DNA of 64,000 nt, from the NCBI GenBank assembly GCA_963575745.1, contig CAUYUJ010000214.1, positions 496,001-560,000 of the forward strand, written 5' to 3'. The position numbers and the translations under genes were made by a program. How positions within the stretch are numbered: position 1 is the stretch's first letter; each line of letters opens with the position of its first letter. Shown here piece by piece: positions 4,144 through 45,424 of the stretch. The notes below the pieces were generated by a model. The model did not search any database. It saw only the letters and a list, made by a program, of their open reading frames with translations, and was not told the origin of the DNA. The DNA is from Prorocentrum cordatum. Lineage: Eukaryota.

Positions 4144-4144
<1 letters not shown>

Positions 4145-4184
<40 letters not shown>

Positions 4185-5171: not shown

Positions 5172-5215
<44 letters not shown>

Positions 5216-5379
5216 AGTTTTTCCCAACCATCCTAATGTGTTGGGTCCTCTTTTTGAAGAGACTGACCCCACGTTCACTCCTCCTCCTCCTCCCGCTGCC
5301 CCCTCCTCCCTCCTCCCTCCTTCCATCTTCGCCCCTGCCCTCCGCATGTTTGTGCTTCGGCGCACACAGTGCAACGCTT

Positions 5380-10475: not shown

Positions 10476-10513
10476 TCCGTAGCCATGTTGGCTCAAGCCC
10501 GTTCTGGATGAAG
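10476..10513 (+). other. Dinoflagellate spliced-leader relic (21/22 match) plus a second degenerate relic
   Basis: TCCGTAGCCATGTTGGCTCAAG (10476-10497) vs DCCGTAGCCATTTTGGCTCAAG; then CCGTTCTGGATGAAG (10499-10513) matches CCATTTTGGCTCAAG at 11/15. Confidence 0.9.
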
Positions 10514-10600
10514 AACCGCTGCCGCTCGTCTGGCAAAGCTCTGGAACATTGCCGCAAAATTCTTGACCCTTCTCCCGCCAGCCCCAGCCAGGGCGTCACC

Positions 10601-11920
10601 ATGGCGGGCAGCCAAAGCAAGAACGTCGTCGGAGGCGCCTGCTTCAGGCCCACGTCTGCTCTGGTGGTTGCCGCCATCGAGAGCTTATACGCCGACGAGC
10701 TCATACCATTCGGCCGTATCCTCCTGAAGCGCGTGGGCGAGCTTGCGGCCGACATCGCCGCCGAGGACGCCCTGAGCGGCAAGACCACGTACGGCTACGT
10801 CTCCACCGACGTTGGGCACCTCCCCCTCATCGACCCGAAGCATCTGATGCGCGTCTGCAGGCAGTGCCCTCGGCTGCGCGTGGAGTTCGTGGACTCCGGC
10901 GAGTACGTGGCGATGCTCGTGGGGTGCCCGCCCACGTTCGTCGATTCCAGCAGCACCGAGGACCCATACCCCGCCGAGCTCTGGGCCGACCTCGTGGCCT
11001 ACTTCGCCGGGCCCGCCGACGCCCAGCCGCCGCTCCCGGCGGGCCAGTACAACAGCGCCCGGGCGCTCCAGGCGCGCGGCCTGCCGTTCCTCGAGGGCCG
11101 CAGCCTCGGGGAGGTGTGCCACATCCTCGCGCTCGCGATGTCCCAGAGGAAGATCCTGGGCCACTGCAAGGGCCACACCGTCCCCTACGCGCGCTCCGAG
11201 AGCGGGCACAAGGAGTTCTGCGCCTCCGCGGAGCTGCCCGTCGTCACCACGAAGGTGGCCTCCGCCGGGATGCCCTTCGCCTCCTGGGAGCAGGTCCTCC
11301 ACGGCCTCCAGGCGCTGCTCGCCGAGTCGTCCGACAGGGGGGCCTTGGGGATCCCCATGCCGAACGTGAAGCGCCTCTTCCGCTCGAGGCTGGGCCTCGA
11401 GCTCAGCGAGACCGCCCTCGGGCACTCGCGGGTGCAGGACCTGCTGCAGGACGAGCGGCTCCACGGCGTCTGCCAGGTGAGGCGCTGCGGCCCGAACAAC
11501 ATCTGCTACGTCACGGTGCGGCAGCCCGACGACGTCCCTCCGCCGCCCGGCCTCCCAGCGTCGTGCGCTGCGCCGCCGCGTGAGTTGGGGCCGCCCTGTG
11601 CCCAGCCCTCGCCGCTGCGGGCCCACCCCCTGCCGGGGCTGGGGGCGCCGCAGCCGGCGTACATCACGCCCACACTGCTCGAGAGCATCCAGCCCCTGGG
11701 CGCGAAGTGGGCCGGCGGGCCCGGCGGAGTCGTGGACGAGGGGCCGCGCGGCGGGCGGAGCGGGCCCTTCGGCCTGGACCCCGCGTGGGCGAGCAGGCCC
11801 TGCGGGCTGGAGGCCGACCTGACGCCCTGGGACCGCGGCCGCGGCCTCCCGTGCGCGGGGGGCCCGCCGGGCCTGCTCGGCGGCGGCCTCGGCCGCGCGA
11901 GCGCGGCCCACGCGGCGTGA
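10601..11920 (+). CDS. OST-HTH/LOTUS-like domain protein, intronless probable retrogene
   Basis: Uninterrupted ORF (frame open from 10508) with high GC3. Motifs include AIESLYADELIPFGRILLKR, DPYPAELW, SLGEVCHILALAM and IPMPNVKRLFRSRLGLELSETALGHSRVQDLLQD, the last resembling alveolate OST-HTH proteins. The ATG at 10508 lies inside the second SL relic, so 10601 is preferred. Confidence 0.75.
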   Translation: MAGSQSKNVVGGACFRPTSALVVAAIESLYADELIPFGRILLKRVGELAADIAAEDALSGKTTYGYVSTDVGHLPLIDPKHLMRVCRQCPRLRVEFVDSGEYVAMLVGCPPTFVDSSSTEDPYPAELWADLVAYFAGPADAQPPLPAGQYNSARALQARGLPFLEGRSLGEVCHILALAMSQRKILGHCKGHTVPYARSESGHKEFCASAELPVVTTKVASAGMPFASWEQVLHGLQALLAESSDRGALGIPMPNVKRLFRSRLGLELSETALGHSRVQDLLQDERLHGVCQVRRCGPNNICYVTVRQPDDVPPPPGLPASCAAPPRELGPPCAQPSPLRAHPLPGLGAPQPAYITPTLLESIQPLGAKWAGGPGGVVDEGPRGGRSGPFGLDPAWASRPCGLEADLTPWDRGRGLPCAGGPPGLLGGGLGRASAAHAA

Positions 11921-27540: not shown

Positions 27541-28553
27541 AGAGGCGTCGCAGAAATAATTAACAATGATTTTCGCAATTATTACCGAAAGAATACTCCC
27601 GGACACGCTCCGACAAATCTCGGGAAATACTTTGGCAATATGTCCGCGGGGCCCGGGGCGTTCCGGACATTCTCCTGAATGTTTGGGACGTGTTTCTGAC
27701 ATACTTTGACATATGTTGGAACAACTTTGCCATTTGTTCTGGGTGTGCAGTCTGGCGACATTTTGGAGATCCTCCCCGGGGGCCAGAGATGCGCTTGGAA
27801 CTCTCCGAGGGCCGGAAATGCTCCGGGAGTTTTGCGGGAATGTTTTGGACATGCATCATGTTTGAAGTTGTTTTGGATAGTTGCAAATGTTTTGCAAATG
27901 CTTCCCGGAAGTGTTTCGCAAATACTCTCCGGGGGGCGGGCCACGTCTGGGATTTCCCCCGGTGGACATACTTTCTGCGGGGATTAGTTTGGGATGTTTC
28001 CGGATATGGTTTTCATGTGTTCTCGGGGCCATGGCCTGTCCCGCCACCAGAGGCCTCGTGGATGTTCGTTGGGATCTCGTCGAGGCCTCTCGGAGGCCTG
28101 AAGGCAGCTTTGAGGCCTTTTGGAAGGCTGGTTTGGGGCATCTTGGGGCCTCGTGGGGGCCTCTTGATGGCGGAAGGCTCCCCCTCTTGGGGCCGTCTGG
28201 GAGCCCTCTTGGGCGCGTCTTGGACTCCTATTGGGCCGTCTGGAGGCCCTCTTGGGCCGTTTTGGGACCCTCTTGGGGGCCGCCTTGGCGCGGTCTTAGG
28301 GGCACCTTTGGACGTCTTGGAGCGTCGGAAGTTCGACACCCCAACAACATTGAAACATCAAGGGGCATTCATGATTTTTGCTCCTCGGGGCTCATATGGG
28401 AAGGATCGTCTGAGGCCTGATGGGACTCAAGCCCTTCTGGCCCAAGCTTCGGCTGTGCCAGATCACCTTGTGCTGTTACCATTTGTGTGCTGGCTTGAGA
28501 GCCTCCGTCAGGAGGTTAAAGCAAGGTCTCAAGATTCCCTTGCAGCCGCAGCC

Positions 28554-29798
28554 ATGGCGCCTGCTCCCAGTACTGTGGCTCCTTGGAGGGGCTCTGCAGC
28601 CGCTCCTGCTGCGGACGACGCCGCCTGGGCCACCTTCTCTGCCAGCGGTAAGACGTGGACATGTGGAAGTTGCGGTTGCAAGCGTAACAAGCGTTCGTGG
28701 TGGTTCTGCAAACATTGTAAGACGTCCCGTGCTTCGTCCGACTCTGGCACGTATGCCCCCCCCCCCTCGTGGGGTGGCAGCTGGCACGCGGGCGGGACTG
28801 GAGGCTACAGCGGTTGGCCAGGCCTTCCGCTACGTGCAGGGCCCCAGTTCGACCCGAACGCAGGAGGTGTCGGCGGCGGCGGTGGCGCAGGCCATGGCTG
28901 GGTTTCGCCTCCGCCCGTCGACCACGGCAACACCTCCATTCCCGAGTTGGAGAAACTGGTGGACCTCCTCACGAAGTGCGGCGACACGATGGGGGCGCGG
29001 AAGCATCAGCTCATTCTTGATCAGAAGCGCCGTGCTGCCACAGCCCCCGCTGTCCCGCTACAGGCTAAGGTCAACAAGGCTTTCCATGACCTTCGTCAGC
29101 TTCGTGATCGCACCGACAAGGCCTGCAACGTCTATGAGAAGATGGAGGCAGAGTTGGTGTTGCAGCGGGGCCGCATCCAGACCCTTACGAACGAGCTCAA
29201 GCAGGCGGAGGAGGCTCACGCGGCCCTGGTGGAGCAGCTGCACAAAGAAGTGGCACCTCCTTCGTCATCAGGCCCGCCTCCAGCTGCCTGTCTGGACATC
29301 GCGGCCATCATCCAGGGCAAGGCTGAGGAGATCCCGATCTCGATCGACTCGCTGTTGGCCCCTCAGAACGACTATGAGATCGCTGGTGACGACCTTGAGG
29401 AGGCGAATCGCAGGGCGCAGGAGCTCAAGCAGTCTCTTCAAGATGCAGTTCGTAAACTATTCGGCGACGCGCTGGACAGGACCCAAGCCTTCCAGGCGGA
29501 CCAGCAGAAGATGCTCGAGCGGCTCGCCTCCAAGCGGAGGCGCAAAGATGGCGACGGAGCAGCGGAGACAGTCACGGGAGGTGGAGATTCTGCTCCTACT
29601 GCCGCTGCCGCCGCCGCGGGCGGCGACAACGTGGCTGCTGCTGGGGCAGCCGCCTCTGCCCCCCAGGCTGAGGTTCCAGGAGACGGCGCTGCTGCCGATC
29701 CCGACCGTGCAGATGTACGAGCCCGTGCTGAACGCCTGTTGTCACATGACCTCCCCCCCGCGGCTGAGGGGCTGCGGGGGGGCACAGCTGCAGCCTGA
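28554..29798 (+). CDS. LINE ORF1: RanBP2-type zinc finger and coiled coil (414 aa)
   Basis: GCC-ATG-G start; WTCGSCGCKRNKRSWWFCKHC; heptad-like helical region LQAKVNKAFHDLRQL...ELKQAEEAHAALVEQL; basic KRRRK near the C-terminus. Confidence 0.8.
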   Translation: MAPAPSTVAPWRGSAAAPAADDAAWATFSASGKTWTCGSCGCKRNKRSWWFCKHCKTSRASSDSGTYAPPPSWGGSWHAGGTGGYSGWPGLPLRAGPQFDPNAGGVGGGGGAGHGWVSPPPVDHGNTSIPELEKLVDLLTKCGDTMGARKHQLILDQKRRAATAPAVPLQAKVNKAFHDLRQLRDRTDKACNVYEKMEAELVLQRGRIQTLTNELKQAEEAHAALVEQLHKEVAPPSSSGPPPAACLDIAAIIQGKAEEIPISIDSLLAPQNDYEIAGDDLEEANRRAQELKQSLQDAVRKLFGDALDRTQAFQADQQKMLERLASKRRRKDGDGAAETVTGGGDSAPTAAAAAAGGDNVAAAGAAASAPQAEVPGDGAAADPDRADVRARAERLLSHDLPPAAEGLRGGTAAA

Positions 29799-30192
29799 AC
29801 ATCATCATCTGAACCGCTCTGATGGACTCGCGCCTGTCTCTGCAGGCCAGCCGTTCAACTTGTCTAACTCTATTCTTTCGGCCTCTCGGCCTCGCCTCCG
29901 TCGTTTCCTCCGCTCCCGCGTTGCGCGTCCTTCAGGCTGCGGCCTGAAGGCTGCTGTTCGCCACGCGTGCTGGAGGACCAAACGAATTTTGTCGGGTGAG
30001 TGTCAGAGGTTCGACTCCCTGCAGGTTGCCCTATCCAAGCCTGCCGATTTTGCTCGGCCTGGCCCAGCTTACCCCGTGTTGGCTGCGCCTGGCTCTCAGT
30101 ACCCGATTGAGGTGGTGCCTGGTCCCAGGATCTCCCAGGCTCCCCTTCCGTGCTCCTCCCTTGCCCCTCCTGGCACCCTGGAGCCTGACGGG

Positions 30193-33100
30193 ATGAGCTC
30201 TGTCGCTTTGTCTGTTCGAACCCTCAACTGCAATAGTTGGGGCACCCTGAAGAAGATGTTACCTCACACGCCTTCGGCGGTCCTGCTGGTGCAGGAACAT
30301 AGATTGGCGGGCAGTGAAGAAGTTGCTGAGGCCTCCTCTTGGTGTGCTCGCAATGGTTGGAAATCGTTGTGGACCCCAGCCGTTCTCACGGAAAACGGCA
30401 CGTCTGGGGGCACTGTTTTGCTTGTGAAAAGTTGGCTAGGCCTTTACCCCCCTTCCTCTGGACACGCTATCGTTCCAGGGCGGGCTACCCATGGGGTCAT
30501 TCAGGTTCCAGGTGGTTCCAGCTACCACATGTTTTCGGTTTACCTGCATGACGGGGAAGGTTTGACCGAGCGCAATCTTGAGCTCTTAAGTTGTGTCGGT
30601 GCCTGTGCTTCCGCGTGCTGCTCCAGTTTTGTTGTGGGCGGCGACTTCAACGTCTCTCCGTGCGAGCTGGAGAGTAGCAAGTTTGTCTCTCAGCTTCAGG
30701 GCCAGCTCGTCAACCCTGGAGGCCATACTCATTTTGGTGAGGGGGCCCCCTCCACCCTGGACTATTTTGTTTGCAGTGGGGGGCTGGGGAAAGCCGTGGA
30801 TTCTTGCTGGATCGATCTGACGACGGGGCTCAGTCCCCATCGTCCCGTGGAGCTCCAGTTCCATCGATCCCCTGCTACTCTCAAGGCCCTCAGTTTCAGG
30901 AAGCCCCCCCCTCTGCCGAGAGACCGTGTTATAGGTCCGATGCTCCCCCCTCCGTGCTGGGATCACGTGATCACGCGAGCTCAGGTCGGTCTTGACGCGG
31001 TCGCAGCCGGCGACGCCGCGGCTGCCCTCAGCCATTTGTCGCCGGCTTACGGCGCTTGGGCCGATAAGGCGGAGGAGGAGTTGGCCCATTTGTTGGGGGC
31101 GGACTTGGTGAAGACAGGATGCAGGAGTAAGGGGCCTCAGCTCGTGTGGCGCAGCTTAGTTGGCCGAGATTCTCAGCCAAGGTATCCTGAGCATCGTGCC
31201 ATCAGCTGGCTGGTGGCTCAGTTTCGCGCGTTTATGGGGCTGCAGCGGGCCGACCAAGGTTGCGGGGGCCAGGCCGCCAGCTTGCACGCCTTGCTTGTCA
31301 GCCCCCCTCCTGTGATTTCACGTCATTCGAGCAAGTATGCCACCTCTTTCAGCCGCGTGAAAGACTTTACTGCTGCTTTGCAGGGCGATCTCCGCCAGGC
31401 CCCTCCTGAGCAAATTGTGAAAGGTGACGAGCTTCTTGGCACCCTTGTCTCTGTCTTGGAAGGGGCCAATGGGGAGTTTCGGGCCCTGGCTCAGTCTGAT
31501 TGGAGAGCCTGGCTCACGGAGGGCCTCGATCAAGGGGCCCGTCGGGTTCATGCGATAGTCCGCGACCCCACCCCTTGGGTCCCCACCACGACCCTTGCCC
31601 GAGATGGGTCTGTTGTGGCCGACCCCCTTTCGCTTCTGTCTGATGAGGGCACCAAGTTTGCCAGGTTCTGGAAAGATGGCGCTGGCAATCCAGCGAGTTG
31701 CACTCTAGTGGAAGCTCTCCCCAGGGCTGATCCTGCTCAGTTGCGGGCCGTTAGTAAGAAATATAAGAAAACCTCGGCTGTCACTTACGACGGTTTTGAT
31801 TGCCGTCACTTTCACCTTCTGTGTGATGCTGGGCTGGTTGCGCTTGGCATGCTCTTTCAGCTGATGGAGTCGGTTGGCCAGCTTCCGCGCCAGATCTCCG
31901 CGGCGTTGATTGCCCTGCTCTCGAAACCCAGCGGCGGCTACAGACCGATAGGGGTGTTCTGCTCCTGGTATAGGGTCTGGGGGCGCCTGAGGCGTCCCCA
32001 AGCCTTATACTGGGAGCAGCAACACCCCCGTCGGTACTGGGCTGCTGGGGCGTTTCGCGGAGCAGCTGATGTGGTCTGGCGCCAATCGTTTCGCTCGGAG
32101 ACGGGGACCTCTAAAGGGGAAGAGAGTGCCAGCGTCTTCTATGATATGCTCAAGTATTATGAAACGATTGATTTAGACGTGCTTGAGCAGCGTTGCCACC
32201 AACACAATTTCCCGATAGTGTTGACTAGGCTTACCCTTTATGCGTGCAGGTGCGGCCGCTTCGTCTCCATCGCCGGCCTCTTGGATGGGCCGCACTTTGT
32301 GCAGAAAGGAGTCATCGCAGGCTGCAGCATGGCCACGACACATATACGCATATATGGTATGTCTTCTTTCGATAAGCTCCCCTCGTTTCCATCTCAAGAC
32401 TTCGACATCTATATAGATGATACTGGAGTGTCTTGCACGGGGTCTCGAAAGCATGTGATTTCTTCCATAGTTGCCGTCTCTCTCGCTCTCCATCATGCTA
32501 TTACTGATGAGAATGAAATGAATTGTCAGCTGGCGCTAGACAAGATATGCACTGTTGCGTCTTCCAAAGGCCTGGCCACCGCGCTGTCTGCTGCTCTTGG
32601 TCAATTAGGAGGCAAGATCACTGCCTCGACTGTGAACCTTGGAGTTGACTACTGTGCTGGCGCCTCGGTCAGGGCCTCTGGGCGTAGCTCGAAGCTCAAG
32701 AGCCGCGTGGCGCTTCTTTGCAGGAAAGCTCGTCGTCTCAAGCGTCAGGCAGGCAACCTTGGTCGCAAAGCCCTCAGAGCGTTCGCCTCGGGCCCCCTCC
32801 CTGGAGGGGCCTATGGGGCGGACATCCTGGGGGTGAGCGACCAGGTCCTCCTGACTATGAGGCGGCAAGCCTTCAAGACGGTGAGGCCTTTTGCTAAAAG
32901 TAGGTCTCTCACGGCTGTCAGCATTTTGTCGGACGACCCTTGCTGGCGAGCTGCGTCGGCCCCCCTTCTGCGCTGGAGCAAGGAGGTCTGGTTGGCCCAA
33001 ACCCGTGAGTTCCCCTGGTCCATTCCTCATCGGGAGCTCCGAGACGGCTTCAGGAGTGTTTTCGCGTTGCCCAGGGTTACCTGGCCAACTGTGAAGGGCC

Positions 33101-35040
33101 CGATGTCTGCTCTTCGCCTTGCCCTCCTTCGCCTTGGTTGGATCATGGAAGACTATGCCACGATTTCCGATGACCGAGGATACCGTTTGCAGCTCGGTTT
33201 GATTCCCCCCAAGCTTTTGGAAACCTTGTGCAAAGAGGCCTACCTTCGTGGGCTCGAGCGTGATCTCGGGGGGAAATGGGGGCTAGAATGCAGGGCGTGC
33301 CTGGACATTCCCAAAGCTGCTTGTGTCAGTAAGAAGTTCACGCCAGCGCAGAGGGGCTGGATTCGAGCATGCTCTTGTGATGCTATTTGGCCTGCGGACA
33401 AGGCCCTGGCATGTGGGTATCAGGTCGACCCGCTCTGCCCTCTCTGCTCTGCTGCGCCCGATTCAGTGTTTCACAGGATTTGGCAGTGCACGGCGACGGA
33501 AGCTCAAGAGTTGCGGACTCAGCTGGTCCCGGCCTCAGTTGTGCTAGACGCCATCGCCGCGTGGACAGCTCAGGCGGAACCTGACCCTCACGTGCGAGCA
33601 CTATATACTAGAGGAGCTTTCGCTCATCCCGCCGATGTTTTGCCGCGTCCTGTCGTGGAGGGAACGAATGCCCTTCAGTTCGTTTGGCATTGTGACGAGC
33701 TTCAAAGCCCTGAAGGTCCCAGGGTCCCAGTGAACGGGGAAATGTGGGGTCATGTCTTCATTGATGGGTCCTGCCAGCGTCGCCCGATCAAAGAACTTTC
33801 AAGAGCTGCCTATGCTGTTTCAATGAACGCCGACGATGGCACTTGCCTTGGAGAAGCGAGAGGCCCTGTCTGGGCTCATCTTCCTCAGACGCCTCAGGCG
33901 GCTGAGTATGCTGCCAGATGCGTCGCCGCTCAGTTCCTGGTGTTGCCGACCACTATTTACTCGGACTGTGCCAATGTCGTGTCTCATAGTATGTTGCCCT
34001 TGCCAGAGAGATACTCGGGCAAGAGGTCGTATTCAGGAATGATTATGTGTGCCAACAACTTTGAGGGCCGTTTTTTGGAAGGCATTGTAAAGGTCAAAGC
34101 TCATTTAGATGTCCATCAGGAGGGCATCTCGGAGAGAGAACGTTTTCTCAGGCGTGGAAATGCTGACGCTGATGCTGGTGCCAAACATGCCCTTCAGCTT
34201 CACCCTTCTGACCCGTCTGAATTAGCCAATGTTGACAAGCTTGTGGAAGCGGCCAGGGGTTATTGCATCCTTGCTGCTAACTTGCTTCCATTATGGCCTA
34301 AGCTCTCTCTTGACGTTCCTTATTTCCCTCCCCCTCCTGCTGAGCATTCAGGCACCTTCAGTAAGGTAGGTCATCGTTGGGAAAACTGGGCTGGTGTCTG
34401 GAGGTGTGCAGTTTGCCTCCGTGGGAGTAGGGGCACGACGCGCCCTTCCCCTGGTCGATGCCCCCAGGAGTCTAAGTTGCATGCCGCGCGGCAGGATGCT
34501 CTAGGGCACAGAACTGTTGCCTTCGACTGCTCAGATAAGTCAGTGTTATTCATATGCCTGAAATGCAAATGCCACTCCACTGGTGGCAGGGTTAGAGGCT
34601 TAGGGGAAGTCTGTAAGAAGCCTTCCCGCGCGGGTCGTCTTGGTTGGGCTGCCTTGTGTAAGGGTATTCATCCACACTACTCCCGGTCGAGTAAAGGTGT
34701 TACAGTTGATGATACCTCTCTTGTGCGCTGCTTTAACTCGCATTTGGTTGCGAATCCTGATTTTTCGGAGGATGGTGACAAGAGCTCCGCCCCCTCTGGC
34801 TCGACAGGTAGTGCTGCCAGCGCTGGAGGGCAGGAGCCTGCCCGCTCCGCAGAGTCTGCTACTGCTTCTGTTGCAGGCGTTCCTGTCTGCAGCGTTGCGC
34901 CCAGCTCTTCCTCGAGTGTTGTGGTCGCCTCGGCCGCTGCCACCAGGGAGTGCTTGAGGCGCATTGCTGCTTCTCTCCGCCGCGAGGCGGATGATATGGG
35001 AACGGGTGGGGCTGTGGAGGCGGGGTCGGGATCGGATTGA
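30193..35040 (+). CDS. LINE ORF2 polyprotein: AP endonuclease, reverse transcriptase, zinc-binding region, RNase H, C-terminal Cys motifs (~1615 aa)
   Basis: APE: TLNCNSW, LLVQEH, FSVYLH, VVGGDFN, TLDYFV, SPHRPV. RT: YRPIG, FYDMLKYYETID, GVIAGCSMA, IYIDD (32407-32421), NLGVD. Zinc-binding: LCPLC..DSVFHRIWQC. RNase H: VFIDGSC, QAAEYAA, IYSDC, KVKAH, GNADADAGAK. C-terminal: WRCAVC, ICLKC. The frame is open from 28420, so the true start is uncertain. Confidence 0.93.
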   Translation: MSSVALSVRTLNCNSWGTLKKMLPHTPSAVLLVQEHRLAGSEEVAEASSWCARNGWKSLWTPAVLTENGTSGGTVLLVKSWLGLYPPSSGHAIVPGRATHGVIQVPGGSSYHMFSVYLHDGEGLTERNLELLSCVGACASACCSSFVVGGDFNVSPCELESSKFVSQLQGQLVNPGGHTHFGEGAPSTLDYFVCSGGLGKAVDSCWIDLTTGLSPHRPVELQFHRSPATLKALSFRKPPPLPRDRVIGPMLPPPCWDHVITRAQVGLDAVAAGDAAAALSHLSPAYGAWADKAEEELAHLLGADLVKTGCRSKGPQLVWRSLVGRDSQPRYPEHRAISWLVAQFRAFMGLQRADQGCGGQAASLHALLVSPPPVISRHSSKYATSFSRVKDFTAALQGDLRQAPPEQIVKGDELLGTLVSVLEGANGEFRALAQSDWRAWLTEGLDQGARRVHAIVRDPTPWVPTTTLARDGSVVADPLSLLSDEGTKFARFWKDGAGNPASCTLVEALPRADPAQLRAVSKKYKKTSAVTYDGFDCRHFHLLCDAGLVALGMLFQLMESVGQLPRQISAALIALLSKPSGGYRPIGVFCSWYRVWGRLRRPQALYWEQQHPRRYWAAGAFRGAADVVWRQSFRSETGTSKGEESASVFYDMLKYYETIDLDVLEQRCHQHNFPIVLTRLTLYACRCGRFVSIAGLLDGPHFVQKGVIAGCSMATTHIRIYGMSSFDKLPSFPSQDFDIYIDDTGVSCTGSRKHVISSIVAVSLALHHAITDENEMNCQLALDKICTVASSKGLATALSAALGQLGGKITASTVNLGVDYCAGASVRASGRSSKLKSRVALLCRKARRLKRQAGNLGRKALRAFASGPLPGGAYGADILGVSDQVLLTMRRQAFKTVRPFAKSRSLTAVSILSDDPCWRAASAPLLRWSKEVWLAQTREFPWSIPHRELRDGFRSVFALPRVTWPTVKGPMSALRLALLRLGWIMEDYATISDDRGYRLQLGLIPPKLLETLCKEAYLRGLERDLGGKWGLECRACLDIPKAACVSKKFTPAQRGWIRACSCDAIWPADKALACGYQVDPLCPLCSAAPDSVFHRIWQCTATEAQELRTQLVPASVVLDAIAAWTAQAEPDPHVRALYTRGAFAHPADVLPRPVVEGTNALQFVWHCDELQSPEGPRVPVNGEMWGHVFIDGSCQRRPIKELSRAAYAVSMNADDGTCLGEARGPVWAHLPQTPQAAEYAARCVAAQFLVLPTTIYSDCANVVSHSMLPLPERYSGKRSYSGMIMCANNFEGRFLEGIVKVKAHLDVHQEGISERERFLRRGNADADAGAKHALQLHPSDPSELANVDKLVEAARGYCILAANLLPLWPKLSLDVPYFPPPPAEHSGTFSKVGHRWENWAGVWRCAVCLRGSRGTTRPSPGRCPQESKLHAARQDALGHRTVAFDCSDKSVLFICLKCKCHSTGGRVRGLGEVCKKPSRAGRLGWAALCKGIHPHYSRSSKGVTVDDTSLVRCFNSHLVANPDFSEDGDKSSAPSGSTGSAASAGGQEPARSAESATASVAGVPVCSVAPSSSSSVVVASAAATRECLRRIAASLRREADDMGTGGAVEAGSGSD

Positions 35041-35721: not shown

Positions 35722-36030
35722 ATTCAAATTTTGAAAGTTTGAAAGTTTGAAAACTTTCAAGGTTTGAAATATTGAAGTTTTTAGGCCGTCCAAGTTTGAA
35801 ATTTTGAAGATTGACATTTGGCAAGTTCGAAATTCATTTATTTCAAATTTTCAAACTTCGCGTTTCTGTCAAACGTTCAAACTTTCAATCTTTCAAACTT
35901 TAAACTTTCAAAGTTTGAAAAGAGCTTCAAACTTTCAAATCGCATCCACTTCAAAATTTGAAAGTTTGACCATTGCAAAGTTTGAAAGTTTGAAAGTTTG
36001 GACCCAGAAGCGTTTAGATGTTCAAAATTT
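35722..36030. repeat. AT-rich array of TTTGAAAG / CTTTCAAA 8-mers in both orientations
   Basis: Read directly from the sequence. Confidence 0.8.
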
Positions 36031-38091
36031 AGGTGTCGTGTGTTTGTGCCCGTGCTCGTCCGGATTCGGGAGGGGGGGAGGCATGTTGAATGTGTCTGTG
36101 TGTGGTGTTGTGCGTGGTGGTGGTGTGCGTGTGTGTGCGGTAAGAACGAGTGACGCCTGAAGGGCCAGCGCGTCGAGACATCCTCAACCTATTGAGATGG
36201 TTCCGCCCGTTTTGCATTAGACATCCTCGCAAGTTTGCGTTCCGATACGACCGGGTCTGCGATGGTCCAGGCTGTTTCGCCTGAGACATCCTGGCAGTCC
36301 CCTCCTTACCTGTCTTCCTCCTCCTCCTCCTCCTTCTCGTCGTCCTCCTCCCTTCCATTCTCCCAGCGCCCCTGGGATCTTGGCGAGTACGTCGAGACTG
36401 CGACTGGTCAGAGGAGGAGGAGGAGGAAGCGGCGGAGTCGGGCGCATTCGTGTCATATACGTTTTCGTTGCTCTCGGGAGACTCCTCGTCGCCACGGCTG
36501 GACGCGCTTCGAAAGTGTCTTGTGATGTGGCGTCGGTGCTTGGCCCGCCCTCACAGATCAAGGCACGCCTGGTCGACGTAATGTTTTTTTTTTGCATTGT
36601 GTCAACCAGTATTTTCAGTCCGCTCTCAAGCGAAAAGCGTTTGCGAACATCGAGCCCTGGTTTTGTGGATTCCGGAGGGGGCAATGGACTAAGAGGAGGG
36701 GGTTGAAGGGGGCCGTCTGTCATATCGCCACATGTCCCGTGTTTTGTAGAGGATGAGGTAAAAGAGGAGGAGGAGGAGGAGGAGGAGGAAGAGGGGGAGG
36801 AGGAGGAGAGGGAGGACGGGCCCGGGGGAGGAGTCTTGTGGATGATGGGGAAGAGAGTTGAGAGGGGGATTGAAAATAAGAAGCAAACCAGGGGGGGCGT
36901 GCCTTTAATATTCGTGTCCTCGAAGGGGGAAACGCTCGCAAAATTTTCAAAAAATGTTTTTGGCATCTTCTGGAGATTGACGCTGGGGACCACATTGATT
37001 TGCCAGAGTTTAGGGTTTTCGTGCCGCGATGCAGAAGAGAGGGTTTTGCCAGGACGTCGCCACTGAAATGCACGCTCGCGCGCGTCACGCCGCAGGCACA
37101 CCACAGGGAAACCTCCAGCACACTGGGCACAAAAGCGCACCGACGCGCATCATCATGTGGAGCCACTTGCGTGATTTGTACGAGACGTCTGCATGTTTTT
37201 GGTGTGTTGGCGGTGCTCGTTTTGCAGGCTAGCGCGGGGGAATTTGTCTCATTCCCTTTAAAGGAAAGACAACTGTTTTCCCCCAAGCCAGCCTGCAAAA
37301 GAAGCCCCGCCAGCACACCAAAAAACATGCAGACGTGTAGCATAAATGACGCATGTGCTTTCGCGTGTTCGTGCGTGTCGCTACGGTTTTGTGGCCTGTG
37401 TGCTCTTGGTGTGCCCGCGGTGTGCGTGCGATGCGGTTTCGGAAAAATCGGTGCCGTAAGATTTTCCATGACTGCTCTCATGAAAACAAAGGAGCTGCAA
37501 TCCAAGAAATCGTTTCCGCTCTGGCCGAGGAGTGGTTTTCGGACACTCCCGGAGGCCGATAAATATGCCATCTTGGATGCCATCTTGTGCTCTAGCACGC
37601 GGCGCTTGGTTTAGGAAAAACATCCATTTCATAAGGAATCTGCGGGTTCACGTTTTTTTTGTTGAACTTCTTGTATGCCTGTATTCCTTACTTAGGCCAT
37701 CCAGTGCCAACTTGGAGACCATCTTGTGCTCGAGCACGCGGCGATGGGTCCAGCAGAAGGCTCAATTCGATAGAGGAATCTGCGGTTTCAGGTTATATGT
37801 TTCGTTTCATAGGGGAATCTGCGGTTCGAAGTTTATATAAGTTTAAATTCTTCATTTTCTTTGCGGCTTGAGGGTGGAGGAGGAGGGGGAGTAGGATCAG
37901 AGCGAGGGGAAGGACTTGGAGGAGGAGAACATCAGGGACGGGGGGCGGGAGGGTGGGATGTGCGCAGGGAGGGGCAAGGGGTTGAACGGGAAGTGGAGGA
38001 ACACAAAAACGTAAACTTGCATTATTACGTTCTTCCGGTGTCCACGCCCCCAGAATTAACTCAGCTGTTTTGGTTCTGACGATTTGTCGGC

Positions 38092-41000
38092 ATGTCCACA
38101 GCAGTGGACGACAGCTTACCCCACGAGTTGCTTCCCAAGCTCGCTCGCCCAGGTTTCGTGCCCAACAGCACCCAGGACGATCACTTACATAAGCTCAGTG
38201 CCATGGTGTGGCATTTTATGGATAATCGCATGCGGCAGTTCCTGAGGAACCACAGTTCCATGCCAATTTCCATCAGCTACCAATCTGATTGCACGCCTTG
38301 TGCCACGCAGGAGACTTTCACAGCGGAGACCGGGGGAAAGAAAATTAGGAGATCGGGCGCCCGCTCGGGCGAGTACCTGTTGCATCGAACTTTTGCCCGG
38401 ACGCCTGATCACGAACAGAGCGTTCTCTTCGGCCCTCCCGATTACTTGGCCGACAAGACGGTCATGACGCACGCAGCGGCTGCGCGGAAATATTTACTGT
38501 ACCCTTTTCAGTTCGGCTGCCAGACGATAAACATCACGCACGTTGTTTTCGACGGTGCTCTTTGGGAGCCGTTGACGTCCGCGCTTTACAGCGACCACGC
38601 CAGTGCCTTCAAGGAGCACGCTCTCAGCAACGGTGCGGACTACGACATCATGAAACTATTCTCGTGGTTTGTGCGCACCCCTTGCGTTTTACACTCATGC
38701 CATAATGGTTTGAAATGGGGGTTGCAACATGAGCTGGGGGACAAAGTCTACATGAAAGACGTTTGGTCTTGCGTCGCCAGTTTGAGACAAACCTTCGGAA
38801 GTTTGCAACCGTACATGAGGACGTGGATAGGTGCGCGTTTAGTCTTACGGGAGCGCGCAGAGGATGACTGGCCATGTTCTCTGTGGAGCGCGATCGGTAT
38901 ACCAGAAAAACTGCGTGAAGAGTTATGCCGGTTGAACCTCCGTTTCTCTGAGGGCAGCCTGCTTGCCTCTGCAGAGCACAAGGATAGCGCGACCATTCAT
39001 GCGGACATTTACGCTGTGCTGCTGCAGGTGTTTCGCGTTTTCGAGTGGTCGGACAGCCGATGGTGCGGGGCTGGCAGGACTTCCAGGCAGATGTTGGGGG
39101 CAATCTTCCTGGGTGTCCAAGATTTTGTAGATTTCGCCATCGCCAGAGGCCACGGCACGTACCACTTGACGTCCTTTGGCAAACTCGACCGTCGCATGAA
39201 GCAGTTTTTCGTCCAGGCTGCTATCGGGTCATACCCCATGGATGCGTGCATGGACGTATTATCCAATAGCTTTCGGCCGTTCCGCCGTGCCCCCTCGGTC
39301 TCAGGTTTGGGGAGCTGGGGTGACTCAAACAAAACCATCGTGAGCGGTGGTTCTTCGGTGTGATGCTGCACTCTGTTGTCGTAGTGTCGGTTTGATTGTA
39401 TTGTATTGCGATGCTTCGCGTGCGCCGCATTGCTTTCCACGCTTTGCGTCGGCGGGCGCTGGAGGATTCGATGACGATCGGGTTCCGCTCGTCCTGACGA
39501 AGCTTCAGCAAGAGATGGATGAGGAGGTCGAAAGTATTTTGGGCATGAGTGTTGACGTGTGGCAAGCTTTCGGAGGAATTACGGGATTGCCTGCCCTTCA
39601 TGTGCGTTCGCTGGTTGTTGACGTGGCTCTCAAGTCTGCGGCGTACATGCGCCATAAGCTGCAGGTCGCCCATGCGCTGCCGTGGTCTGCATTATGTCTG
39701 CCTTTGGAGGAGGCGTGCGAGGAGTTTGCACATATGTCCAGGCCTGACGATGAGCTGAGCCTCAACATATGGAGTTTGATTCGCGTGGGCACCGACCGCC
39801 AAACAGTTCTCGAGGGCATATCGCTGCTGCAAAGACTGAGCTGGTCAACGAACCCGACGGAGCAGGGCCACTCACATGCCGCCCGGATCGTTCGTCACCA
39901 TCGCGTCAGCGCAACGACGATGCAGGTTCGCAGCTGCGTCGGCCAGGCCCGGCCGTTGTTCGCCATCCCAGCCGACGAGAGGAAACTCGGCGCGCTGTTT
40001 GCGAGGCTTCGCCGGTTGGAGGCTATGCAGCCGCAGAAGATCACCGCGAAGGCTGCTTTCGTCGGCGACCTTCTCGATCTCGCCGCTGGCGGCATCATTG
40101 CCGAAAAGCATGACGCCAGTACCAGGGGCAAGCGAACTGTTGCTAAGCACGGGCGGCTTTGGCAGGCCCTTCGCCCAGAGCAGAAACGTGTGTACGAGGG
40201 GAAGGCCGCAGTGCGCAGGGCTGCTAGGATAGAGGAAATTGACGACAACATTGCCCACGTAAGGCAGGAGATCCGCGAGCGGATTCGCACTGCGGACGAC
40301 GAGTCCGCTGCTCGCGACGTGTCTTGCAGGTTCTCGTCTTGCCGTTTGTCTGACAGCGAGAAACGTGCATTTGACGACTTGTGGGGCCACCCCGCGTTCA
40401 CTCTGAACAGGCTGGCGGATATTAAGCAGATCATGAAGCAGCCACTTGGGCCACTGACGGAAATCGAACAGGCAGCCCCGTCAGATGCTGACCGACTGGC
40501 TGTGCCCCAGGCGCCGCCAGTGCCCGCTTGGGTCACGGGTCTGGCGAGGCATCGCGATCACTTGCGACGTTGCCTTGTCCGCGTGCGGGATGGCGAGTGC
40601 ACTCGGCACTTCAAGTTCTTATTCGGCGTGTTGTGGCCGTCGGCATTTGTGGCATTTCTCGACTTGGCTGCAGAGGTTGACCATGGAGCCTTAGCTCCAC
40701 TTGCTCTTCATTGCGGCGGGGGTGACGATTGGGGGCACGCTTTCTGGTTTGCACCAGGGGCCTTCTGCTACACGGATTCATGGGGGGAGGATCTACCACT
40801 ACATCCCGAAATACACGTCATGGAGGACTCTGCCTATTCATCAACCACTCGTTTGGGCAGCGATGCGGATTGGGTGCCCTGGGGTGAGTTCGAGATGAGA
40901 TTCCCAGTTCGCGCGGCCAGGGCCCCCCGCGATTCCAGGGCAGGGGCTCCAGATCGCCCTTCTCGCGGCGTGCTAGCCGATGAGCCTTGGTTGCAAGACA

Positions 41001-41554
41001 TTTTCGGCCCTGTCTCGAACGGAATCGCCATTCATCATGGCCGTCGCGCGGGTGCCACTGAGTTCAGCGAAGATGCGGGCAGCGACTCCGACGACCAGTT
41101 CGAACAGCAAGATGTATGGGAGGCCCTGGCAGAGGCTCGCGCGGCGGTGCTCCATGGCGTGGAGGACGAAACGCATTTCACATATACTATCAGGGGCGGC
41201 GCGTGGACTCGTGAGCACGAGGGCGTTGACTACGACTCTTATCGAGCATATGCGGCCACTACCGAGGGCGAGCAGTTCTTGGTGTTCCACGGCCTGGGCA
41301 CGACAGCGACGTTTTCCATTGATATGTATACTGAGCATGGTTGTGGCGTGCTGCGCCGATACTGGGTTGCCAAAATGAACTTTTTCAAAGCCCTCGCTGA
41401 TCAGAGCGAGGCAGGCGCGGCCCCCTTCAACGCCGAGGCCTTGGGTCGATTCGTCGAACCACCTGAATTCGTAGAGCTGGCGTCTGCCGCTGGTGCGCCG
41501 AGACGCGTGCAGCAGCGAATCGCACGTTTGCGTTTGTTGCGGCCCTACATGTAG
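38092..41554 (+). CDS. Putative DDE (hAT-like, CxxH) transposase with HMG-box-like and AP2-like segments, split by a ~200-bp insert or intron at ~39262-39466
   Basis: ORFs 38092..39363 and 39347..41554. Motifs: SYQSDCTP (38275-38298), HVVFDGA (~38539-38559), PCVLHSCHN (~38680-38706), WSTNPTEQGHS (~39842-39874), KHGRLWQALRPEQKRVYEGKA, and TFSIDMYTEHGCGVLRRYW. Confidence 0.6.
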
Positions 41555-41644
41555 GAGAAAAATCATTGAGCATCCGCATCTCAACTCTGCCGGTTTGCTT
41601 ACACATTGAATGTATGATCCTGCTGGAGTACTGTTCGCTATGTG

Positions 41645-42320
41645 CGCTGGGGCCCTCTTGGGGGGCTTTGGGAGCACTCCTGGAGCCCTCTCGGGGCCCC
41701 CTTGGAACCCTCTGGGGTCTCTTGGAGCCCTTGGGGCTCCAAGAGGGCCCCCAGAGGGCCCCAAGAGGGCCCCGAGACGGGGCTCCTTGGGTGGGCCGTG
41801 CAAGAGCTCATGGAGGCACCAAGAGGGGACCCAAGGAGCCCCCAAGAGGGTACCCGAGGAACCCCCCAAGAGGGCCCAGGGAGCCCCCAAGAGGGCCCCC
41901 AGAGGGCTCCAAGAGGGCTCTAAGAAGGCCCCCAGAGGATTCCAAGAGGGCCCCAAGACGGGGCTCCTTGGGTGGGCCGTGCAAGAGCGCATGGGGGCCC
42001 CAAGAGGGGACCCAAGGAGCCCCCAAGAGGGAACCCAAGGAGCCCCCCAAGATGGCCCAGGGAGCCCCCAAGAGGGCCCCCAGAGGGCTCCAAGAGGGCT
42101 CCAAGAGGGCCCCCAGAGGGCTCCAAGAGCACCCTTAGAGGGCCCAACCACCTGTCACGAAAAAGGGCCTTGTTCGTGACAGGTCGTTGGGCCCTCCTGG
42201 GGGGCTCTTGGAGCCGTCTCGGGGCTTTCCGAGGGACCCAAGAGGCCCCCGCGGCGGCTCCAGAGGGCCCCAAGACGGCCCCAGGCGGCTCCAGAGGGCC
42301 CCAAGACGCCTCCAGAACGT
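41645..42320. repeat. GGGCCCCAAGAGGG-rich degenerate repeat family
   Basis: Short CCAAGAGGG/CCCTCTTGG motifs in both orientations. Similar blocks at ~16710-16980, ~28030-28420, ~46240-47740 and ~55640-55720. Confidence 0.8.
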
Positions 42321-42604
42321 ATATTGGGCAACGCACGTAGCCCGAGGTTCCCGGAGGGGCTTCCAGTGACGCCCGAAATCATGTTCCCGGAGGGGGGTCT
42401 GGGAACATCCTTCCCCCCATGGTCCTTACCCCCCCCCCCCCCATGCATGGCTTAGCGGTGCGTTCGTCCTCCGACCTCTCACCGATTCCATCGGGAGGGA
42501 TGGGTCTGGACGAGGGGGGTGGGCGCGAGGAGGATGAGGGCGATCAGTCCTGTGGATGGTGTCACTTCGGAGTCCCCCTCGGCTCTCCCTGAAAGGCCTT
42601 TAGA

Positions 42605-42926
42605 GCAGCTACGATTTTGAACACGATTTTGCAATACGATTTTTTCTACCCACTTGCCTGAGACATGTCGCCGAAAATATTGTTGGTCAGTATTGTTAGT
42701 GAAATCGTGGTCGATCGGGGTCCAGCTTGTTAAAAAATCGTTCTCCCTTGGCCCGGGTTCCCCGTTCGAAATCGCGCTGGCGGCTCGCGGGCCCTGCATT
42801 CAAAATCGTAGGAGCGGGGATTGGAAATCGTTGCCGAAATCGTAGGGGGGGTTATGCAAAATCGTAGCCCAAATCGTCAGGGCTTGAATTCAAAATCGTC
42901 GGAGCGGGGTGTGGAAATCGTAGGGG
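42605..42926. repeat. Cluster of AAATCG(T) motifs with an inverted ACGATTTT triplet
   Basis: Three ACGATTTT copies at 42612-42645, then about ten AAATCG copies up to 42921. CTACGATTTTGAA pairs with TTCAAAATCGTAG. Confidence 0.7.
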
Positions 42927-43296
42927 CGATTCTGTCGGTGACAATGCCAACGAGTCTGGCTTCACAGCCGGGGGGTCTGGGCCTCAACTGCGCAGCCTGA
43001 TGGCAGAGGGGCCCTGGCCTGCTGTGTCCGGCCTCGCGGCCAAGGGGGTTTGGCTTAAAGTGCGTGGCCGCGCGGCCATGGGGGGTCTGGCATCAAGTGT
43101 CAGGGTTCACAGCCCGGGGTGTTTGGCCTGGAGTGATCAGCCTGGCGGCCCAGGGTGGTTCGCCTCAAATGTCCGGCCTCGCGGCCAGGGTAGATTTGGC
43201 CCCACGTGTCTGGCCATCTCGGTGCGTGCACGTCCGCAGATATCTGCGAGCAGGCCCCCCTGCCACCCCCAATAGTTTCGTACGAAAGGGCCCCTA

Positions 43297-43318
43297 TCCG
43301 TAGCTATTTTGGCTCGCG
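43297..43318 (+). other. Dinoflagellate spliced-leader relic (19/22 match)
   Basis: TCCGTAGCTATTTTGGCTCGCG vs DCCGTAGCCATTTTGGCTCAAG, ending 68 nt upstream of the ATG at 43387. Confidence 0.85.
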
Positions 43319-43386
43319 AGCTGCACCGATCGTTTCCCCTCGCATCTGCCCTGCCGCAGTGCGCCTGCCACCACCTGCGAGGAGCG

Positions 43387-45424
43387 ATGGCGCCCAAGGC
43401 GAAGACCCCGACCAAGGATGGCGCCAAGGCGAAGGCGGCCGCGAAGTCAGCTGAGAAAGCCGCCCAGGCTGCACGGAAGCAGAAAGCTGCGGCCGAGGCG
43501 AACACGCTGCTCGAGAAAGAGAGCCTCGCGCAGCAATCCAGTAAGCGAGGCCGCGCCGACGAGGACCACAGAGCTGCTTGTTTGAAGATCATGAACGACC
43601 ACTTCTCGGTTCTGAGCGACGACGACAAGTACGTGCGCCAGATCGACGGATACACGCTGGAGAAGAGGATCGACGTGGACCGCAAGCGGTGGCTCAACTA
43701 CGAGCTGACCATGGGCAAAAACTATTATGATGCATTGCGGACGCAGTATTCGACTGAGGAGGCCCCCTGGAAGCGCATCAGGGTCCACGACGAGGCCGAC
43801 AGCGACGACGAGGATTTGGAGGAAGCTTTATTCCAAGCTGCCAAGCACGTGGCGGACTACGAGCCGCTAGCCCTCTGGCTCGAACAAGAAAAGCTCCCTA
43901 ACCAAAAGAATGCTGCCGGCCTCATGAAGAGGGTGCTGATGTGGGACCCCAGAGCAGCCGCCGGGAAAAACGAAATCCTCATGAAGATCTTCAGCTGGTG
44001 CCAAAAAGTCAGTTTCGAGGAGCGCTACCCCGCCATTTGGCAGCTCGCCGAGGCTTTTCTTCCACATTGTTCTTGACAAGAGCTACACCATTGCGAAGGC
44101 GGATGGCCTGAGTGTGAAGGGTTGGTGGTCCTGCGTGAAAGAGGCTTCCTCGTTACTCCTGGACGTCGACGCCTTCGACAAGTGCGTCAAGTGCGATAAG
44201 AATTGGAACAATGTGAAAGACGAGTTGGAGAAGGTCAGGGGCAGCGACGTGGCCAAGAGGATCTTCGCCAAGGGTTTGGCGACGATCGACGCTCGCCAGT
44301 TCGGTAATTTCATCGACGAGGCGATGGACCAGCTGGCGGCCAGCGACACCAAGGTGGACAAGGCTGTGTACAAGAAACTCAAGGACGATCTCGAGGGCAA
44401 GTTTAAGCAGAACGCCCAGAGCATGTACGTTGCCCAGAAGCCTCGGCCAGTCAGCGTGTCTTACCGGGCGGTCATGTTCATGGTGCTGGTGAAGAGCTTC
44501 CTCGATGAGTTCCAAGTGAAGTTCTGGGCGCTCGTCTTGGGCGCCGCCGTCAAGCAGAATTTGTTGTCAGCGCTGTTCTGTGAGAGCGACCTCGTCGATG
44601 TGACCGAGCCGGCCAGAGCGCCGCCGATCGACCCAGAACTCATCGCTCCGGCGGTTGCTGCGAGAGCCGAGGCGAAGACTTTCGTCAAGGACCCGGAGAA
44701 GGCAGGCAAGGTCGATATCAAGACAGCCCTGGTGAACAACGACCGCGCCCTCTGCAGGATGCACGAGGGGTGGAAGGTGTACATGAACTTCTGGCTTTCC
44801 CAGTGCGGCTCCGCGGGAGAGGAGCGCATGGTCTCCGAGGTGGTTGGCTTGCTGGCTACCCCGACAGAGGATCGCAAGTTGAAGGCGTGCAAGGACGGCA
44901 TACAGAGGTTGATCAAGTCGAAGCTATATCAGTTCATCGGCACAACCCTGCAGACCGAGATGACCACCGTGGGCGGGTGGATCACATCGATGCACGCGGG
45001 CCGCTGCCCCGCGCTCCCTAAGACGGTCGTGAAGGACAGCTTCTACGAGACAGTCGTGAACCAGCTCCCGAATTTCTACCGCGAGCCGAAGCCCGAGGGC
45101 GGCGGGGAGGTCGTGGGCCGAGATGCCCTTCAGCTCCTCTACGCGGCGACCGAGAGCGTTGGGGGCGATGTGGCGTCAGTCAAGCTGAAGCCTTTCGCCA
45201 CCTACAATTGGCTGCTCACCCAGGACGAGAAAAAGAAGGTGCAGGACTGGACCTCGGCCGCGATCAAGAAGGAGACGGGTAAAGACGTCGTCGCGTCCAA
45301 GGGCGGCGGCGGGGGCGGCGCCGCCGCCGCAGCCAGCTCGAAGGGGGTGCCCGCCAGCTCAAAGAAGAAGCCGACTGACGAGGCCATTTTGCGGGCTTCC
45401 ACCAAGGCTCTGTTCAAGAACTGA
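43387..45424 (+). CDS. Intronless hypothetical protein (~678 aa, MAPKAK...) with a single +1 frameshift; probable retrogene
   Basis: ORFs 43387-44076 and ..45424 have strong GC3 bias. Deleting one T from TTTT at 44055-44058 gives a continuous ...AEAFFHIVLDKSYTIAKADGLSVKGWW... Both termini are Lys/Ala-rich; no domain recognised. Confidence 0.75.

Follow-up and report, generated by a model that had tools for sequence, protein, structure and literature searches.

Which enzyme is encoded by a dinoflagellate gene that appears to join a transposase core to DNA-binding modules of its own, and does that gene still belong to a mobile element? This question is raised by positions 38092–41554 (+ strand) of a 64,000-nucleotide (nt) stretch of Prorocentrum cordatum DNA (contig CAUYUJ010000214.1, positions 496,001 to 560,000), the whole of which is referred to as the window. 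An earlier reading of the letters alone (the original prediction) had proposed a hAT-related DDE transposase fused to HMG-box-like and AP2-like modules, and a candidate mobilizer of local miniature inverted-repeat transposable elements (MITEs). Our analysis indicates, with a probability of about 0.7, an intact two-exon gene for a 1085-amino-acid (aa) DDE recombinase of the Hermes/hAT structural type. The sequence predicts a Hermes-like DDE enzyme, catalytically intact and provided with an HMG-like box, which is a member of a very large unnamed dinoflagellate family.

Catalytic core and gene structure

All motif strings quoted in the original prediction were found in the translation of the + strand and in their expected places (Table 1), with PQKITAKAAF...YEGKA beginning near 40030 and FTYTIRGGAW beginning at 41177. 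Conservation was judged from an alignment, designated A1, which consists of P0001 (1085 aa, 96% identical to the window protein) and 74 of the 150 listed matches of the family search described below, the other 76 having been left out as fragments or as proteins of deviating length. Eight residues, D66, D154, H201, R323, G341, D393, E522 and H525, were retained in 75 of 75 members sharing 20–30% identity. C198 was found in 72/75, with Asp in the remaining three, and W324 in 67/75, with Phe in eight. Judged from these sequences, the motif conservation is far beyond chance, and the retention of D, D, CxxH and E in homologues, proposed as a check in the original prediction, was borne out. hAT transposases are marked by a C/DxxH motif that follows the second Asp and by a conserved Trp, as part of RW, within the insertion domain. 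Both hallmarks are present here, the SRW motif resembling the RW motif of hAT transposases at the level of the motif.

With the single sequence, AlphaFold2 gave an unusable model (predicted local distance difference test, pLDDT, of 36), and with A1 a model of pLDDT 89.4 and predicted template modelling score (pTM) 0.78 was obtained. In this model, three strands (59–80, 83–103, and 109–119) are followed by a helix, a strand (147–153), a helix, and a strand (191–197); about 300 residues are then helical (insertion at ~199–515), and the next helix (519–534) bears E522. In RNase H-like transposases, the acidic positions lie on strand 1, after strand 4, and on the helix following the insertion. As modelled, residues 59–534 follow this order of the transposase core.

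The model was then compared with known folds. Foldseek against PDB gave two matches at an expect value (E) <= 1e-3, both of which were Hermes, and the top 10 rows were all Hermes (probability 1.00, ~590 columns), followed below by P element, RAG1, ISCth4, and Transib. Hermes was also the best match in VIA-align and in a Foldseek-independent wide search. Against BFVD, the sole match at E <= 1e-3 was a Pandoravirus protein annotated as 'HAT family C-terminal dimerization region' (E 6.2e-5), and the language-model leads at 0.76–0.78 were the hAT-linked Pfam families FAM200-ZBED5 RNase-like (0.78) and DUF659. The likeness to Hermes amounts to a common superfold, with ~10% identity and a template modelling (TM) score of 0.4. 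The model contains the RNase H-like DDE core with large alpha-helical insertion by which hAT enzymes are recognized. The ranking of Hermes as top match in the AlphaFold and Foldseek comparison, together with the conserved D, D, C/DxxH and E, agrees with the proposal of a hAT-type DDE enzyme with an RNase H fold, both at the fold, which is predicted to be RNase H-like, and at the acidic residues, which are conserved, the two points at which that proposal had been declared open to refutation.

Hermes and the other hAT (hobo/Ac/Tam3) transposases share with the window protein the DDE core, the helical insertion between strand 5 and the Glu helix, C/DxxH after strand 5, and R-W in the insertion. 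In contrast, the window protein is without an N-terminal BED or site-specific domain, no Pfam dimerization signature was detected in it, and it has ~530 extra C-terminal residues (the HMG-like box and two domains); nor was an 8-bp target-site duplication (TSD) with terminal inverted repeats (TIRs) seen. No BED or zinc-finger family was matched, and strand 1 is preceded by just 58 residues with two helices. At the other end, the structural alignment extends to Hermes residue 609, and Pfam Dimer_Tnp_hAT matched 0 of 42 family members at E <= 0.1. Since BED is absent, the dimerization signature undetectable, and TIR and TSD not found, we do not file the protein as a plain hAT member; it is an architectural variant of hAT-like DDE transposase, possibly a clade of its own.

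On the + strand, the protein is encoded by two abutting open reading frames (ORFs) in differing frames, 38092–39363 (423 aa) and 39347–41554 (735 aa). Excision of 39261–39465 gives a joined coding sequence of 3258 nt, in which 1085 uninterrupted codons are followed by a stop. The length of ~1085 aa given in the original prediction thus holds after joining; the region is not a single ORF, two frames being used across it. Public sequencing runs were compared over 37000–43000: X1, a DNA run containing 79% of the sampled words and possibly made from the source organism; X2, a declared RNA-Seq metatranscriptome; X3, a sister-organism run presumed to be RNA; and X24, raw DNA reads of the sister organism, which is ~2% different from the window sequence. 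One DNA contig (X1 record 3) is continuous through 39083–39867 with the 205-nt stretch included, and a second, ~90% alike (X1 record 4, 39083–39406), also has the stretch. The X2 contig (3181 nt) and X3 contig (3254 nt) start at 38108 and 38101, respectively, end at 39260, and resume at 39466. Likewise, P0001 reads MDACMDVL directly followed by FDDDRVPLV, the 205 nt of the window being skipped. The frame is intact over 1085 aa once the 205 nt, which the RNA-library contigs lack, are left out.

The borders of the 205-nt stretch are AT..GG, or TC..GA or CC..AT given a 2-nt ambiguity (AT at both borders). These ends differ from GT/GC/GA..AG and are non-canonical for an intron; in dinoflagellates, two papers describe non-canonical splice sites and introns with short repeated borders (PMC5032977, PMC7789003). 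Within the window, no further copy of the stretch and no TSD longer than 2 nt were found, and its RNA fold was no better than that of shuffles (z 0.04). Translation across it changes the frame and runs into a stop at 39361–39363. The X24 depth on the gene was very low (0–0.18). We treat the stretch as an intron, the spliced form being known from contigs of another organism and of a metatranscriptome alone. The locus is a real, intact two-exon gene, and its expression is likely, with the spliced form known solely from RNA-library contigs of another organism.

Table 1. Positions of the gene, its modules and catalytic motifs, and the adjoining repeat (window coordinates)
Feature	Position	Strand	Remarks
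Exon 1	38092..39260	+	M1 to first two bases of L390 codon; RNase H-like strands 1-5 and most of helical insertion
Intron-like stretch, 205 nt	39261..39465	+	in DNA, missing from RNA-library contigs
Exon 2	39466..41554	+	last base of L390 codon to stop; insertion end, E522 helix, HMG-like box, beta-rich domain, acidic low-confidence linker, C-terminal module
Hermes-like catalytic region, residues 25-557	38164..39967	+	predicted RNase H-like core, all-helical insertion, and helix 519-534; interrupted by the 205-nt stretch
SYQSDCTP, residues 62-69; D66 codon (first catalytic Asp, strand 1)	38287..38289	+	75/75 in A1; model strand 59-80
HVVFDGA, residues 150-156; D154 codon (second catalytic Asp, just after strand 147-153)	38551..38553	+	75/75 in A1
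PCVLHSCHN, residues 197-205; C198-V-L-H201, C/DxxH just after strand 191-197	38683..38694	+	A1 counts in the text
R323-W324, SRW motif in insertion domain	39058..39063	+	A1 counts in the text
WSTNPTEQGHS, residues 516-526; E522-Q-G-H525 on helix 519-534	39860..39871	+	E522 codon 39860-39862; E 75/75, H 75/75
HMG-box-like three-helix module, residues 584-672	40046..40312	+	model helices 584-600, 607-623, 627-672
Beta-rich domain, six strands, residues 744-868	40526..40900	+	from the model; W745, R753, P781 kept in >=90%
C-terminal module (AP2-like in the original prediction), residues 961-1036	41177..41404	+	model strand-helix-strand-helix-strand-helix
G+C-rich very high-copy repeat	41623..42426	.	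starts 69 nt past stop; 11-nt unit (GGGCCCCAAGA-like), 181-nt higher-order period, internal inverted arms

Additional modules and the protein family

Downstream of the catalytic region, the A1 profile was compared with all PDB sequences. Among 36 matches at E <= 10, 27 were HMG-box proteins, including HMGB1, SSRP1, NHP6A, SOX2, TOX, UBF, and Maelstrom, and the others were eight apolipoprotein A-I and one Not5. The best match was 5zdz_N, the HMGB1 chain of RAG complexes (E 9.7e-4, profile positions ~590–660). Pfam HMG_box was matched in 7/42 members and HMG_box_2 in 3/42 at E <= 0.1, and P0001 itself has no Pfam HMG_box match. All these Pfam matches are located at residues ~595–671 and at profile positions 18–66, corresponding to helices 2–3, so that a three-helix unit with the helix 2–3 pattern stands at one consistent position in the family. 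The HMG-box helices of the original prediction thus received weak but consistent support from the profile and PDB matches and from three modelled helices, with every Pfam score remaining below threshold. The module is probably a diverged HMG-type box.

For the terminal module, in which an AP2-like domain had been seen, the outcome was different. AP2 domains consist of a three-stranded sheet followed by one helix. The model contains instead strand 961–967, helix 969–975, strand 979–986, helix 989–997, strand 1003–1007, and helix 1008–1036, with F961, G967, G968, G976, D980, and W1023 kept in at least 90% of members. AP2 was absent from the Pfam matches of 42 members (E <= 0.1) and from the 36 PDB sequence matches (E <= 10). 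An AP2 domain is therefore unsupported and improbable here, the fold matches having covered residues up to 675. Between the beta-rich domain and this module the model has an acidic low-confidence linker, and from 1036 to the end it has helices. A language-model atlas search with residues 740–1085 gave no usable match.

The size of the family was estimated by a HMMER scan with P0001 of 1.84 billion cluster representatives. It detected 2828 proteins with E <= 1e-3; 1420 of these also passed 1e-10, and 432 passed 1e-30. The family comprises at least 2828 clusters at 50% identity. Most of the 150 listed matches are ~1065–1140 aa long and were aligned with P0001 from ~10 to ~1083 at 24–30% identity. 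Because the match spans nearly the full length, the entire architecture, beyond one domain, is old and conserved. In an index of 5.8 billion proteins, P0001 was the only close relative obtained with a single-protein query, and the A1 profile led to three proteins. No name or Pfam label came with these index matches, a look-up of the clusters of 10 proteins (sources Logan, JGI/IMG, ENA, and EukProt) gave no name either, and the window ORFs matched 0 Pfam and 0 NCBIfam families. No second copy was detected by tblastn within the window, and no relative was detected in viral contigs with the A4 alignment as query. In the full-text literature, with Repbase and subscription journals outside its scope, no account was found of an HMG-box-bearing hAT-like transposase in dinoflagellates, and for the terms searched, dinoflagellates and HMG are both missing from a broad survey of DDE enzymes. 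The family is very large, old, and unnamed, and is found in dinoflagellate-type sequence.

Two known systems offer points of comparison for this architecture. RAG1 and Transib are hairpin-forming DDE enzymes with an insertion domain, and need an HMG-box protein for DNA bending; the best PDB match of the family profile is, as noted above, the HMGB1 chain of RAG complexes. The domesticated hAT genes (ZBED family, DAYSLEEPER, and Kat1) are alike in having a hAT-type core without transposon ends. They keep BED fingers and form small families, whereas the window family comprises thousands of lineages with invariant catalytic residues.

Termini, retrocopies and competing explanations

TIRs and TSDs were searched for in ~2 kb on each side of one copy, that of the window (36000–38091 against 41555–44000), by exact seeds, by a TSD and TIR scan (TSD 2–10), and by blastn-short of flank against flank. 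There were no exact 8-bp TSD candidates, and in the single candidate whose TSD contained a mismatch, the TIR was poor (10/14). The best TIR candidate was an 11-mer at 38076/42870 within a tandem repeat, about one such pair being expected by chance according to our estimate. The candidate pair 38073/42883 was rejected, as it was based on an 11-mer falling in a tandem repeat. The short TIRs and 8-bp TSD of hAT elements were thus not seen within 2 kb per side of this copy, and the earlier remark that no TIRs were confidently found was reproduced in all three types of search. In both organisms, DNA reads cover the flanks at far higher depth than the gene; X24 depth was 3–12 over 37402–38004 and 100–870 over 41623–42426, and ~0.1 on the gene. 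The repeats on the two sides do not resemble one another and are partly of low complexity. As neither a TIR nor a TSD rose above chance, and as the gene depth in the DNA run is near that of the flanking unique sequence, the proposal of a mobile transposon that mobilizes local MITEs finds no support at this locus. The situation named as refuting it, single-copy homologues without shared termini, applies in part, for the window copy only, with the fold and residues as described above. No result indicates that this copy is still able to jump, and its mobility is unproven.

Copying of the family through RNA was indicated by another line of evidence. The searches below used the 21-nt dinoflagellate spliced leader. 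Relics of it were found in the window at 10477–10497 (1 mismatch) and 43298–43318 (3 mismatches), with 0 expected by chance; by its sequence, the window is dinoflagellate-type DNA. Nine relatives of the gene (L001–L009) were obtained from metagenome contigs with a five-member sub-alignment. All nine are genomic and without an intron-sized gap in the matched range; seven are open across the match, and L001 and L008 have one in-frame stop each. No inverted repeat across the ORF was found in L003, L004, and L005, for which both flanks (148–554 nt) are available. A relict leader was located 45–64 nt before the ATG in three of the seven relatives with upstream flank, L004 (20/21), L003 (16/21), and L006 (16/21), each score being reached by 0/500 shuffles. 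L005 and L008 gave weak matches, and L001 and L007 have no relic upstream. For the window copy, the best match was 12/21, reached by 160/500 shuffles, indicating no relic. L003, L004, and L006 therefore resemble dinoflagellate relict-leader retrogenes in both respects, a leader before the ATG and absence of introns, and the window copy, with its intron-like stretch and no relic, differs from them. Because leader relics stand upstream of three of seven relatives, RNA has been at least one of the routes by which genes of this family were copied.

Selection was estimated from pairs of copies. Between L001 and L002 (257 codons), the synonymous rate (dS) was 0.556 and the nonsynonymous rate (dN) 0.097, giving a dN/dS of 0.175. 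The window copy and its 98%-identical counterpart have 65–69 nucleotide differences, with 39 amino-acid differences to P0001; among the 32 differences listed for this pair, 13 were silent and 19 protein-changing. The protein has been under long-term constraint, with the closest pair relaxed, a pattern that fits a transposase lineage and is also compatible with a host gene.

Several observations weigh against the reading of the locus as an intact gene for a Hermes-type recombinase with an HMG-like box. Co-location of D66, D154, and E522 was deduced from the positions of secondary structures and not from distances in the model. The catalytic part is without a Pfam or NCBIfam match in the window protein and in 42 members, the hAT dimerization family included. 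HMG_box was matched at E <= 0.01 in 5/41 members only, the HMG matches of 17–22.5 bits are all under the Pfam curated cut-off of 25.4, and the fold search on residues 557–675 returned only generic helical hairpins, uninformative on an HMG fold. Around the window copy, no TIR or TSD rose above chance. X1 depth was 3.5–21 on the gene against 6–9 in flanking unique sequence; the gene depth is close to that of the flanks, and therefore the lineage has not recently multiplied. The dN/dS of the window copy and its counterpart, ~0.6 by a rough hand estimate, points to relaxed constraint. Moreover, the gene would be broken if the 205 nt were retained in the window's own organism. The last point is the core of one alternative, that the window copy is dead and the 205 nt are a frame-breaking insertion missing from sister-organism DNA and not an intron. 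Its unusual ends, the frameshift and stop on read-through, the restriction of the joined form to metatranscriptome contigs and those of another, ~2% different organism, the near absence of sister-organism raw DNA reads over the gene, and the relaxed constraint against the 98%-identical counterpart all agree with this alternative. It is nevertheless improbable: both exons are open across 1085 codons with all conserved residues retained, the ~90% alike DNA contig also has the stretch, which is hence of greater age than one insertion, dinoflagellates have non-canonical introns bordered by short repeats according to the two papers cited above, and the stretch is neither a window repeat nor bordered by a TSD longer than 2 nt. 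Another alternative concerns the class of the intact recombinase. The Hermes match could reflect merely the nearest solved fold, the protein belonging to a non-hAT C/DxxH DDE superfamily without a solved structure, such as Kolobok, or to a superfamily of its own. This is unlikely, as every search ranked Hermes well ahead of P element, RAG1/Transib, Tn5, and ISCth4, the only significant match in an independent library was hAT-annotated, and the SRW motif is hAT-like, as are the size and position of the insertion.

For an intact recombinase gene of Hermes type, two modes of life were compared. As an autonomous cut-and-paste transposon gene, it would have TIRs that are short, diverged, or farther out, and would mobilize non-autonomous relatives. 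Catalytic residues invariant in 75/75 diverged members within a conserved architecture, as if transposition were selected, the huge family, flanks more abundant than the gene, a pattern seen when MITEs share element ends, and mobile-element-rich surroundings with the long interspersed nuclear element (LINE) at 28420–35040 all speak for this mode. It is doubtful for this locus, however, as inverted similarity between the flanks is within chance, no 8-bp TSD with TIR was found and the one 3-bp-TSD candidate lies on an 11-mer of which ~1 is expected by chance, L003–L005 are without an inverted repeat across the ORF in flanks of 148–554 nt, the flanking repeats are mutually unlike and partly of low complexity with the gene depth near that of the flanks, and three of seven relatives are retrocopies, unable to carry TIRs. 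The other mode is a domesticated, hAT-derived family of nuclease and DNA-binding proteins that spreads by retroposition and duplication and has a cellular function on DNA. Leader relics upstream of 3/7 relatives and intronless genomic loci, the strong purifying selection between diverged copies (dN/dS 0.175), low copy with no TIR or TSD here, the spliced form in RNA-library contigs from several studies, and the conservation of ~500 non-transposase residues within the 1085-aa architecture are in agreement with it. Against it, domesticated transposases often lose their catalytic residues, which are invariant here, thousands of 50%-identity clusters are more typical of mobile elements, two of nine metagenomic loci (L001 and L008) are decaying with in-frame stops, the closest pair shows relaxed constraint, and retrocopies, being common to all dinoflagellate genes, do not discriminate. 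This mode has a nearly even chance, and we lean toward a transposase-derived gene without recognizable ends here over an autonomous TIR transposon. More tentatively, the family may be an undescribed, superfamily-level clade of Hermes-like DDE enzymes, widespread in dinoflagellates, in which an HMG-type bender of its own and two C-terminal domains replace the BED finger; it would be catalytically intact in thousands of lineages and may act on the histone-poor chromosome as a major unrecognized DNA transposon group or as a recruited genome-rearranging nuclease.

If the enzyme is active, two-metal DDE catalysis would nick DNA, and the flanking DNA would probably be closed into a hairpin, as happens with hAT and RAG-type enzymes, aided by the insertion-domain tryptophan. 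The HMG-box-like module may bend DNA in cis, as compared with HMGB1 acting in trans for RAG, and the ~400 conserved C-terminal residues could serve end recognition or multimerization. Genes of the family have multiplied, at least partly, as spliced-leader-tagged retrocopies. RAG and some transposases depend on HMGB1 supplied in trans, and a natural single-chain counterpart of RAG1 and HMGB1 could reveal the coupling between DNA bending and the making of hairpins. The genomes of dinoflagellates are very large, sparsely annotated, and rich in 'dark' gene families, and a family of at least 2828 clusters, for which no model or description was found, would supply a name and a testable activity for a sizeable share of this dark fraction. 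The leader relics show that DNA transposase genes can multiply via RNA, which matters for the reading of transposase copy numbers in dinoflagellate genomes.

Repeats and genes around the locus

The repeat at 41623–42426 showed an X1 depth of 1300–6340, compared with ~10 nearby, and is also abundant in X24 with many rearranged joints. It is regarded as context, its membership in the gene not being indicated. Short-unit arrays were also observed at the ends of the 3' flanks of relatives, GGGACCAAAAG-like in L004 (3780–4125) and GGACCGCAGAA-like in L005 (4220–4305) and at the end of L009. These loosely resemble the array after the window gene, and may represent a family feature or a common dinoflagellate satellite. 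L005 (947–4293) and L009 (1–3347), which come from two metagenomes, are 99.25% identical over 3347 nt, with the 3' flank included; one gene with its flank is thus present in separate samples.

Upstream of the gene, by 660 nt, a palindrome-like sequence is located at 37091–37430, in which the 110-nt arms show 75% complementarity and an inner pair 85%. It may be a MITE candidate of the original prediction, and its ends are unlike the flanks of the gene. A direct repeat of ~90 nt with 79% identity (37566–37654 and 37705–37794) contains the GGAATCTGCGG motif and lies in a region whose abundance in sister-organism DNA reads exceeds that of the gene 30–100-fold.

Both leader relics of the window stand close to ORFs. 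The relic at 10477–10497 lies 11 nt before the ORF 10508–11920 (+), which has OST-HTH-associated and LOTUS-like matches and is likely a retrogene. The relic at 43298–43318 (+) directly precedes the ORFs 43309–44076 and 44114–45424 (+), which are in different frames and have no Pfam match; together they possibly represent a retrocopy that contains either a frameshift or an intron. Just upstream of the gene, the LINE-like ORF 28420–35040 (+, 2206 aa) matched Exo_endo_phos (E 2.5e-5) and, below the cut-off, RVT_1 (E 1.2e-3), and is a possible source of reverse transcriptase for retrocopies. A weak reverse-transcriptase match, likewise below the cut-off (E 5.4e-3), was obtained for the ORF 1731–4004 (−, 757 aa), which may be a retroelement remnant.

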